A DNA stretch of 64,000 nt from Escherichia coli. Its GTDB lineage: Bacteria; Pseudomonadota; Gammaproteobacteria; Enterobacterales; Enterobacteriaceae. Numbering within the stretch: the first letter of the stretch is position 1; each line of letters opens with the position of its first letter. A program made the translations under genes and the position numbers. The stretch is taken from assembly GCF_044647545.1 (NCBI RefSeq), contig NZ_CP172818.1. One strand, given 5' to 3'. Positions 21,682 to 45,068 of this stretch are shown here, piece after piece. Under the pieces are notes generated by a model. It searched no databases and was not told the origin of the DNA. It worked only from the letters and a program-made list of their open reading frames with translations.

Positions 21682-21688
21682 GTGAAAG

Positions 21689-21721
21689 CCGGATAAGACG
21701 CTTCAAACGTCGCATCCGGCG
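21689..21721. repeat. REP-like palindromic unit between convergent tilS and rof
   Basis: GCCGGATAAGACGC ... GTCGCATCCGGC imperfect palindrome. Confidence 0.5.
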
Positions 21722-21729
21722 AAAGTCAA

Positions 21730-21984
21730 TCAGGACTCGCTCACCACCACCGTACCAATTTCCGGGTGGCTAAAGCTGGTAATTTTATCCAGACGTAGCT
21801 CGCGGGTTTCGCCAGCAGCTTCGACGACCAGATATTCCACATTTTTGCGGGAGACTAAATCGCTGGCCTTCCCCTGCAGTTTTTCGCCATCTTTCAGCTC
21901 AAGTGTCAGCATTAAATGATGCTGGCAGGCGAGCTCAAGATTATCGTAATCATCACAATTGATTGGTTGATACGTATCATTCAT
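21730..21984 (-). CDS. rof: Rho-specific transcription termination inhibitor Rof
   Basis: 84 aa from second Met ([23 protein letters not shown]...); track ORF starts 2 codons earlier. Confidence 0.85.
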
Positions 21985-22177
21985 TGACATAATCGCTCAC
22001 CAGTAAGTTTGCCGCAGCGTATGCTGCTTTTTCCCTGACAGCCTCAGAAAGGGCATCGTCGGCAGCCATTTCATTCAGCACTTTCAAAACGCAGCCCAGC
22101 GCGTCCGGAACGTATCCTAAGTCTCCGCTGGCGATTTCCGCGTACCGCTTGCGTATTAACTCACAATATTTTTCCAC
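21977..22177 (-). CDS. yaeP: small conserved protein YaeP (GTG start)
   Basis: 66 aa (M)[21 protein letters not shown]...; 8-nt overlap with rof start. Confidence 0.8.
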
Positions 22178-22342
22178 ATGCCCTCCTGTCAGCACTCTGA
22201 CTTAACCGTGGATGCAAGTCTAAGCCTACGAAGATAAACTCTGTTTCGCAAGGTGACTATACCACACTCATTTCTGCAATATCAGCGCCGCAACTGCACG
22301 TATTCCGTTACAATGGCCTCCTGATTCGAAAGGAGTTTTCTT

Positions 22343-22888
22343 ATGGCGCTTAAAGCGACGATTTATAAAGCGACGGTTAATGTGGCCGATCTCGACCGCA
22401 ACCAGTTTCTCGATGCCTCTCTGACGCTGGCGCGCCATCCTTCAGAAACCCAGGAGCGCATGATGCTGCGCCTGCTGGCGTGGCTGAAATATGCTGATGA
22501 ACGTCTGCAATTTACCCGAGGTTTGTGTGCCGATGATGAGCCGGAAGCGTGGCTGCGTAACGATCACCTGGGCATTGATTTATGGATTGAACTGGGGCTG
22601 CCGGATGAGCGACGGATTAAGAAAGCCTGCACTCAGGCCGCAGAAGTGGCGCTGTTTGCCTATAATAGTCGGGCGGCGCAAATCTGGTGGCAGCAAAATC
22701 AGAGCAAATGTGCGCAGTTTGCCAATCTTTCCGTCTGGTATCTGGACGATGAACAACTGGCGAAAGTGAGCGCCTTTGCCGATCGTACCATGACGCTGCA
22801 GGCAACGATTCAGGATGGTGTTATCTGGTTATCGGATGATAAGAATAATCTGGAAGTGAACTTAACCGTCTGGCAACAACCTTCATGA
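22343..22888 (+). CDS. yaeQ: conserved protein YaeQ
   Basis: 181-aa [25 protein letters not shown]. Confidence 0.9.
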
Positions 22889-31776: not shown

Positions 31777-33318
<1,542 letters not shown>

Positions 33319-33386
33319 CCTTAAAGAAGCGTACTTTGCAGTGCTCACACAGATTGTCTGATGAAAATGAGCAGTAAAACCTCTAC

Positions 33387-33463
<77 letters not shown>

Positions 33464-33505
33464 AATTTGCACCGCAAATTTGAAGAGGTTTTAACTACAT
33501 GTTAT

Positions 33506-33581
33506 GGGGCTATAGCTCAGCTGGGAGAGCGCCTGCTTTGCACGCAGGAGGTCTGCGGTTCGATCCCGCATAGCTCCACCA
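33506..33581 (+). tRNA. alaV: tRNA-Ala (TGC)
   Basis: GGGGCTATAGCTCAGCTGGG...CTCCACCA, 76 nt. Confidence 0.95.
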
Positions 33582-33765
33582 TCTCTGTAGTGATTAAATA
33601 AAAAATACTTCAGAGTGTACCTGCAAAGGTTCACTGCGAAGTTTTGCTCTTTAAAAATCTGGATCAAGCTGAAAATTGAAACACTGAATAGCCGAAAGTT
33701 ATTCGTGAGTCTCTCAAATTTTCGCAACACGATGATGAATCGAAAGAAACATCTTCGGGTTGTGA

Positions 33766-36669
<2,904 letters not shown>

Positions 36670-36768
36670 ACAACGCCGAAGGTGTTTTGGCGGAAGAGAC
36701 ATCGACAAGTAAGCTTGATACAGATTAAATCGACAGGTCAGAACAGGACGTGTTGATAAAACAGAATT

Positions 36769-36888
36769 TGCCTGGCGGCCGTAGCGCGGTGGTCCCACCT
36801 GACCCCATGCCGAACTCAGAAGTGAAACGCCGTAGCGCCGATGGTAGTGTGGGGTCTCCCCATGCGAGAGTAGGGAACTGCCAGGCAT
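36769..36888 (+). rRNA. rrfH: 5S ribosomal RNA
   Basis: TGCCTGGCGGCCGTAGCGCGG ... AACTGCCAGGCAT; 120 nt. Confidence 0.97.
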
Positions 36889-36940
36889 CAAATTAAGCAG
36901 TAAGCCGGTCATAAAACCGGTGGTTGTAAAAGAATTCGGT

Positions 36941-37017
36941 GGAGCGGTAGTTCAGTCGGTTAGAATACCTGCCTGTCACGCAGGGGGTCGCGGGTTCGAG
37001 TCCCGTCCGTTCCGCCA
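36941..37017 (+). tRNA. aspU: tRNA-Asp (GTC)
   Basis: GGAGCGGTAGTTCAGTCGGTTAGAATACC...TCCGCCA, 77 nt, distal to 5S. Confidence 0.95.
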
Positions 37018-44991: not shown

Positions 44992-45068
44992 GGAGCGGTA
45001 GTTCAGTCGGTTAGAATACCTGCCTGTCACGCAGGGGGTCGCGGGTTCGAGTCCCGTCCGTTCCGCCA
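44992..45068 (+). tRNA. aspV: tRNA-Asp (GTC)
   Basis: Identical in sequence to the aspU copy at 36941-37017. Confidence 0.95.

Follow-up and report, generated by a model that had tools for sequence, protein, structure and literature searches.

The gene rof of Escherichia coli begins inside a smaller gene, yaeP, on the same strand, and the arrangement raises two questions: which of two in-frame ATG codons starts rof, and whether rof is translated by ribosomes that have just finished yaeP. We considered both in a window of 64,000 nucleotides from contig NZ_CP172818.1 (assembly GCF_044647545.1), "the window" meaning the whole stretch of DNA that was analyzed. A sequence-only reading of this window had proposed that yaeP, a tiny conserved gene of 66 codons with a GTG start, ends 8 nt inside rof and that the two are translationally coupled. 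An 801-nt query around the junction is 100% identical to several complete genomes, and the locus is found in 5424 of 5426 complete E. coli genomes. Both gene names stand: the product of yaeP matches Pfam family PF06786 (UPF0253) at an E value of 7.5e-34 (116.3 bits against a cut-off of 27, residues 1 to 65 of 66), and that of rof matches PF07073 (Rof/YaeO, Rho-binding antiterminator) at 4e-29 (101 bits against a cut-off of 27.6, residues 9 to 83). The features discussed below are collected in Table 1.

Table 1. Positions of the yaeP-rof features in the window
Feature	Position	Strand	Description	Basis
yaeP CDS	21977..22177	-	GTG start at 22177..22175, 66 sense codons, TGA stop at 21979..21977; UPF0253/YaeP family	ORF and translation
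rof CDS from the upstream ATG	21730..21990	-	86 aa (PGAP); the K-12 annotation begins at 21984 and gives 84 aa	ORF, Pfam, and annotations
ATG1, upstream candidate rof start	21988..21990	-	Overlap with yaeP of 14 nt (21977..21990)	
ATG2, rof start in the K-12 annotation	21982..21984	-	Overlap with yaeP of 8 nt (21977..21984), ATGAATGA	
yaeP Shine-Dalgarno AGGAGG	22182..22187	-	4 nt upstream of the GTG	Read from sequence
SD-like GGUGA in yaeP codons 59-61	21997..22001	-	Ahead of ATG1 by 6 nt and of ATG2 by 12 nt	
Nearly invariant 30-nt block TTACTGGTGAGCGATTATGTCAATGAATGA	21977..22006	-	Takes in the rof translation initiation region with ATG1 and ATG2 and the stop codon of yaeP	
Candidate promoter-like site of yaeP-rof	22256..22285	-	-35 CTGATA, 18-nt spacer, TG-extended -10 TATAGT	Consensus scan
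REP-type palindrome in the tilS-rof gap	21688..21720	.	GCCGGATAAGACGC...GCGTCGCATCCGGC (plus strand)	Read from sequence

On the minus strand, the junction reads CTG GTG AGC GAT TAT GTC AAT GAA TGA in the yaeP frame and TGA GCG ATT ATG TCA ATG AAT GAT in the rof frame. ATG1 is the first start codon past the in-frame TGA at 21999..21997, and the yaeP UGA lies 11 nt downstream of ATG1 and 5 nt downstream of ATG2. Each ATG is annotated as the rof start in one source or another: the RefSeq entry for K-12 gives an 84-aa product and an 8-nt overlap, and PGAP, in a genome 100% identical to the window across the 801-nt query, gives an 86-aa product and a 14-nt overlap. The overlap is therefore real and its length annotation-dependent, so that the earlier reading was exact in its coordinates, GTG start, codon number, and shared strand, whereas its figure of 8 nt holds only for ATG2 and becomes 14 nt with ATG1. 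There is no intergenic space between the two genes. A YaeP-Rof fusion produced by frameshifting is not possible, since the rof-frame TGA stands two codons before ATG1. A weak terminator-like match inside yaeP (22109..22095) was set aside because its codons vary freely. The junction also carries a tandem ATGA-ATGA (21977..21984, minus strand), the second ATG of which (21980..21978) has a 4-nt overlap with the stop of yaeP and sets a third frame; the resulting ORF varies between 14 and 50 codons in length, its sequence is not conserved, and it was rejected as a gene, although its ATG could act as a decoy for re-initiating ribosomes.

The status of the two genes as an operon is taken from the literature (Said et al. 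2024, PMC11018626; mBio 2022, PMC9765468). Between yaeP and yaeQ, about 66 nt of the intergenic sequence (22285..22220, minus strand) are nearly invariant among 78 distinct Enterobacteriaceae sequences, whereas the flanks of this block vary. It consists, in order, of CTGATA, 18 nt, a TG-extended TATAGT, and CACCTTGCGAAACAGAGTTTATCTTCGTAGGCTTAG, the last 36 nt being 22255..22220, and it is probably the yaeP-rof promoter together with a conserved leader or operator. At the other end, the REP palindrome occupies the 48-nt gap that separates the convergent genes tilS and rof and probably marks where the operon ends on its 3' side; Said et al. 2024 (PMC11018626) describe REP elements on both sides of the locus. 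A scan of the operon against Rfam returned nothing at the gathering score, and at an E value of up to 1 it returned weak matches to naRNA4 (a REP-derived family) on both strands and spurious microRNA matches, all at the REP element. The predicted fold of the yaeP-rof 5' untranslated region is not significant (z = -0.90). Elsewhere in the window, a complete rRNA operon (31777..37014; 16S, two tRNAs, 23S, 5S, and tRNA) presents an ordinary E. coli rrn context, with a StyR-44 match directly before the 23S gene, and an additional tRNA lies at 44992..45065.

That yaeP encodes a small conserved protein was part of the original proposal, and it is borne out. Across 79 Enterobacteriaceae sequences, codons 2 to 57 have a pN/pS of 0.128 in the annotated frame, against 1.30 and 4.35 in the other two; the start is GTG in 77 and ATG in 2 of these sequences, and the stop is TGA in all 79. 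The product matches a crystal structure (PDB 5H1N, E = 1.4e-38) and has a listed abundance of 94.5 ppm (table in PMC9841429). From the in-frame pN/pS, the structure, and the abundance, it follows that YaeP is a genuine translated protein, and the objection that yaeP might not be translated fails. It has also been detected in Salmonella by mass spectrometry. The reading of yaeP as a leader ORF or an annotation artifact can appeal to its small size, its GTG start, and its lack of a known function or an overexpression phenotype, but it conflicts with the in-frame constraint, the Pfam match, the solved structure, the proteomic detection, and the existence of homologues without rof in Vibrio, in Utexia (Orbaceae, L086), and in a metagenome lineage (L090); we consider it extremely improbable and effectively refuted. 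The family is small (36 clusters at 50% identity among 1.84 billion proteins), and our literature search found no paper on PDB 5H1N or on UPF0253.

The Shine-Dalgarno (SD) sequence of yaeP forms an anti-SD duplex of -10.8 kcal/mol and does not vary when 78 distinct sequences of this upstream region are aligned; it is listed as AGGAGG with an aligned spacing of 12 in Table 2 of PMC9841429. A longer, 72-aa version starting at a GTG at 22195 was rejected: that GTG is not conserved, whereas every sequence has GTG or ATG at the 66-aa start, preceded by the invariant SD. The start is an AUGUG site (22175..22179, minus strand) in which an out-of-frame AUG stands 2 nt ahead of the GUG; the A of this AUG varies among species, and Table 2 of PMC9841429 lists the site as not ambiguous. 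Within the gene, codons 43 to 49 (about 22031..22051, minus strand) form a second patch of lowered synonymous variation (CTT, GTC, and GAA without exception, in 60 of 60, 71 of 71, and 79 of 79 sequences, and AGG, a rare Arg codon, in 64 of 76), containing an SD-like CAGGGAA (-5.1 kcal/mol) and a possible small hairpin, with no start codon after it. Where yaeP occurs apart from rof, it is solitary in Utexia (L086) and lineage L090, and in Vibrio alfacsensis (L085, 2001..2398) the next gene is a DUF4250 gene whose start shares 1 nt with the yaeP stop (TAATG), an arrangement that ties YaeP to a different small protein in that lineage.

The translation of rof retains all of the Rho-contacting residues C10, Y13, D14, and E17 (84-aa numbering), rof has a pN/pS of 0.144, and the protein is 98 to 99% identical to PDB chains 1SG5, 8W8D, and 8PTM. 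The deposited chains themselves differ in length, 1SG5 having 86 aa and 8W8D having 84 aa, and two cryo-EM studies used the 84-aa form. Codon 40 (86-aa numbering; 21872..21874) encodes Gly in the window and Ala in K-12 and in all E. coli PDB chains, KLQGKASD versus KLQAKASD, a strain polymorphism.

To place the junction in a comparative frame, we took the best 80 species loci returned, all of them Enterobacteriaceae, and analyzed 79 sequences by codon; more distant lineages were covered by a few look-ups (Serratia L084, L087, L092/L093, Vibrio, Utexia, and L090). In all 80 of these Enterobacteriaceae loci, rof lies directly downstream of yaeP in the same register and without indels at the junction. 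The out-of-frame overlap is also kept in Serratia (L084) and in two other lineages (L087 and L092/L093), so that it is fixed in Enterobacteriaceae and in at least three more lineages of Enterobacterales, confirming its conservation in other enterobacteria. Synonymous divergence in the rest of yaeP amounts to about 0.5 differences per site, and an overlap fixed across the loci in spite of such divergence is not due to chance. The constraint is sharply localized. Codons 58 to 66 of yaeP show no synonymous variation in the 79 sequences save for two instances of AAC at codon 65, whereas the Ala, Tyr, and Asn codons among codons 50 to 57 vary freely (entropy, 0.4 to 1.8 bits). In windows of five codons, pS is 0.00 at codons 58 to 60, compared with a gene mean of 0.53, and outside the adjacent windows that share codons with this block, every window of yaeP and rof gives 0.11 or more. 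From ATG1 onward, part of the invariance is what dual coding alone would lead one to expect. Codons 58 to 62, however, lie upstream of both rof ATGs, so that dual coding cannot account for their invariance.

Two further features of these alignments are recorded here for completeness. Codons 7 to 9 of rof (TAT CAA CC, 21965..21972, minus strand) are invariant at synonymous sites in the 79 Enterobacteriaceae sequences; Serratia L084 keeps TAT CAA, and the Tyr codon 7 is TAC in L087 (TAC CAG) and L092 (TAC CAA). This segment may mark where the ribosome footprint ends downstream, or it may pair with UGGUG as the 3' side of a hairpin; no covariation was found. In L092/L093 (2001..2449), a divergent lineage, the YaeP C terminus seems to be frameshifted (…ANLFTGERSCQ), and one of the two contigs has a truncated yaeQ. 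This lineage still has GGTGAG-N5-ATG, and its rof is intact, with a 10-nt overlap, ATGTCAATAA.

The sequence upstream of the two ATGs helps to choose between them. GGUGA is complementary to the 3' end of 16S rRNA, and its duplex of -7.6 kcal/mol ranks in the top 2.6% of 10-mers in the window; for comparison, the corresponding energies are -8.2 kcal/mol for the AAGGAG of yaeQ and -1.5 kcal/mol for arfB, which has no SD-like sequence. Counting initiation as SD led when at least 5 nt of anti-SD complementarity lies 5 to 10 nt upstream of the start, ATG1 is SD led (GGUGA, 6-nt spacer) and ATG2 is not (12-nt spacer). Only the 6-nt spacing of ATG1 falls in the working range of SD elements, and the 12 nt of ATG2 does not. 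GGUGA is invariant in 83 of 83 loci even though it occupies synonymous sites of yaeP. ATG1 is kept in all 79 analyzed sequences and in Serratia L084, L087, and L092, and ATG2 is kept in 77 of the 79. It is ACG in the two exceptions, L013 and L021, a change that AAC in place of AAT at yaeP codon 65 brings about, and among the more distant look-ups it is ATA in L092. L013, L021, and L092 all encode an intact Rof, and over at least the first 30 codons of their rof no ATG, GTG, or TTG other than ATG1 occurs.

Taken with the spacing of GGUGA, the universal retention of ATG1 makes it most likely the main or ancestral rof start on comparative grounds. The loss of ATG2 in three lineages in which ATG1 is the sole possible start indicates that rof probably begins at 21990 (86 aa, 14-nt overlap) and would not be SD-less; we conclude that the description of rof as lacking an SD is true for ATG2 only. 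ATG1 is a functional start in the family and probably in E. coli as well, where ATG2 is a possible second start. The other way of reading the junction is that rof starts only at ATG2, without an SD, and is made purely by ribosomes that, having terminated at the UGA of yaeP, move 5 nt backwards, giving the 8-nt overlap. The RefSeq annotation of K-12 (84 aa) agrees with this, as does the account of Said et al. 2024 (PMC11018626), in which rof is without an SD and the overlap measures 8 nt; of the in-frame rof ATGs, ATG2 is closest to the yaeP stop, no SD-like sequence is found 5 to 9 nt ahead of it, and its initiation signal in vitro is slightly above that of ATG1 (8 to 13 versus 7.9) in INRI-seq. 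We nevertheless regard exclusive use of ATG2 as rather unlikely: it is missing from the three lineages in which Rof is intact and only ATG1 can serve, ATG1 with its GGUGA-N6 is invariant at synonymous sites of yaeP, PGAP chooses ATG1, and, in INRI-seq, ATG2 initiates in vitro without upstream termination, so that its use is not purely a matter of re-initiation. One of the conditions under which the original reading would be refuted, that rof starts elsewhere, is thus realized in part; the comparative data favor an ATG 6 nt upstream, yet the overlap persists, at 14 nt, and is not removed.

The INRI-seq data deserve a closer description, as they bear both on the start and on coupling. In this approach (PMC9825163), retapamulin is applied in a cell-free system to synthetic fragments, and the rof fragment begins inside yaeP and excludes the yaeP start. 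The table of that study gives ATG2 peaks of 8.2 to 12.8 in five replicates and an extra in-frame start site at -6, corresponding to ATG1, with a peak of 7.9 in four of the five; the in vivo Ribo-RET column, for growing cells, has 0 at ATG1 and ATG2 alike, and values for other genes in the same table are about 56 to 83 for nlpE and about 500 to 1100 for yaeR. Initiation on a fragment without the yaeP start implies that the rof start region can load ribosomes alone, weakly, and at both ATGs, from which it follows that coupling is not obligatory and that ATG2 may be used. The combined INRI-seq and Ribo-RET pattern may reflect coupling-assisted expression of rof, and it is compatible with either start codon. 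Neither rof nor yaeP is present in the TRAINSPOTTER start-site supplements.

How, then, might translation of yaeP lead to that of rof? We consider it likely that yaeP and rof form a two-gene operon in which the ribosome-binding region of rof lies inside the last nine codons of yaeP and rof is translated by re-initiation, with ATG1 as the main start. A ribosome ending yaeP would stop at the UGA (21979..21977) with the rof starts 5 to 11 nt and GGUGA 18 to 22 nt behind it; after release, the small subunit would re-engage through anti-SD contact with GGUGA and start at ATG1 or ATG2, and the output of Rof would follow that of YaeP but stay below it. Geometry, conservation, SD-like complementarity, and weak autonomous initiation in vitro are observed, whereas we infer that re-initiation takes place and that E. 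coli prefers ATG1. As in coupled pairs generally, the genes share a strand, yaeP stops within or beside the region where rof initiates, and the arrangement is conserved (all 80 Enterobacteriaceae loci plus L084, L087, and L092/L093). Geometry and its conservation thus fit translational coupling, as the literature also proposes, and coupling from yaeP to rof is plausible from the sequence. The weakness of rof initiation alone in vitro (RPF of about 8 to 13, against 56 for nlpE and 500 to 1100 for yaeR) counts for coupling, as does the absence of a rof signal from the Ribo-RET column. Since the conserved GGUGA stands 6 nt before ATG1, independent initiation of rof is possible as well, and a mixed mechanism, with termination-linked re-initiation and anti-SD contact both contributing, is the most likely for rof translation.

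Several alternatives can be set against this mixed mechanism. There may be no functional coupling at all, rof being translated from its own SD (GGUGA) and ATG1 while the overlap is compact packing, kept because changes would hit two frames and a ribosome-binding site. The SD-like element has good spacing and energy; initiation occurs in vitro, in INRI-seq, on a fragment without yaeP translation; rof expressed by itself from a vector promoter shows activity and toxicity (PMC11018626 and PMC9765468); and yaeP and rof are unlinked in Vibrio. Against such independence, de novo initiation is weak in vitro and, in the Ribo-RET column of the same table, undetected in vivo, with a listed YaeP abundance of 94.5 ppm; the yaeP stop falls inside the initiation footprint, so that a terminating ribosome necessarily covers the rof start region; and the geometry of the overlap has not drifted in 83 loci. 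An uncoupled rof seems rather unlikely to us. A distinct route to coupling is unmasking, in which a hairpin (UGGUGAG/CUUAUCA and AUUAU/AUGAU) would hide the SD and ATG1 until a ribosome at the end of yaeP melted it. This hairpin is the minimum-free-energy fold in many species, the mean unpaired probabilities (0.20 for the SD, 0.41 for ATG1, and 0.79 for ATG2) match such masking, its pairing is possible in 89% of cells, and it would account for the invariant TAT CAA at rof codons 7 and 8. Its stability, however, is no better than that of shuffled sequence (z = -0.48), no pair has changed on both sides, two variable columns disrupt it (in 40 and in 31 of 60 sequences), and RNAalifold does not recover it (covariation term, -0.18). 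The conserved block, being invariant, gives no covariation evidence. We rank the unmasking hairpin low and consider it unlikely.

Under yet another proposal, the overlap would be frozen to hold a fixed ratio of YaeP to Rof, YaeP being a partner of Rof (a buffer, an antagonist, or a cofactor acting on Rof or Rho) in a module resembling a toxin-antitoxin system and directed at Rho-dependent termination. The positive basis for such a partnership is the conserved linkage of the genes in Enterobacterales and nothing beyond it, and we regard it as quite unlikely. As in type II toxin-antitoxin operons, a small upstream gene overlaps a gene that is toxic when overproduced; in contrast to them, a yaeP-rof plasmid keeps the Rof phenotype, YaeP alone is inert (PMC9765468), and yaeP and rof are unlinked in Vibrio. 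The plasmid results argue, indirectly, against YaeP neutralizing Rof.

Classical translationally coupled pairs are of the ATGA and TAATG types, examples being trpE-trpD and trpB-trpA. Like these, and like yaeQ-arfB, the yaeP-rof pair lies on one strand with the stop within a few nucleotides of the start and is conserved; it differs in distance, the yaeP stop coming 5 or 11 nt after the rof start where the classical pairs have 1 or 4 nt, so that the ribosome must move backwards. The yaeQ/arfB overlap in the window is a classic 4-nt ATGA (22885..22888, plus strand). Unlike arfB (-1.5 kcal/mol), rof has an SD-like element. The 4-nt yaeQ-arfB overlap and the lack of an SD in arfB are already given in Fig. 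1e of Said et al. 2024 (PMC11018626).

The yaeP-rof overlap has a published history of its own. In Said et al. 2024 (Nat Commun 15:3186, PMC11018626), rof is said to lack an SD and to overlap yaeP by 8 nt, rof is reported always to overlap a yaeP ahead of it in Enterobacteriaceae, and the two genes are placed on different chromosomes in Vibrio cholerae; the same paper describes yaeP and rof as co-expressed, as does the mBio 2022 study (PMC9765468). Expression of the operon is reported for stationary-phase or slowly growing cells. According to the source data of Said et al., the blot behind Fig. 3d has plasmids with rof, yaeP+rof, and yaeP(delta ATG)+rof in lanes 2 to 4, rof[84aa] and rof[86aa] in lanes 10 and 11, and FLAG versions in lanes 13 and 14. 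The mBio 2022 study examined the two genes jointly, on the view that their overlap pointed to an influence of yaeP on the expression of rof; rof alone explained the antitermination phenotype, and yaeP alone had no effect (PMC9765468). The observation made from the sequence is therefore a re-discovery, the overlap and the coupling idea having been published in both papers: the genes, the overlap, and the proposal that yaeP translation modulates rof are the same. What differs is that the published account gives 8 nt and no SD, whereas the present comparison points to an ATG 6 nt upstream (14 nt) with a conserved GGUGA 6 nt before it. As a whole, the proposal describes a correct, ordinary, and published feature, and its coupling interpretation, drawn from sequence, is a reasonable one shared with the literature. 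Relative to that literature, the sole useful addition is that the upstream ATG, with an embedded conserved SD-like element, is favored by comparison, which would make the overlap 14 nt rather than 8 nt.

The practical value of the result lies in annotation: the K-12 start of rof and the statement that it has no SD are probably wrong or incomplete. [quoted passage not shown] The overlap with yaeP, already described, is the only regulatory feature known at the rof locus, and since Rof turns off Rho, an essential termination factor, and is toxic if overproduced, how its synthesis is limited is a genuine question.
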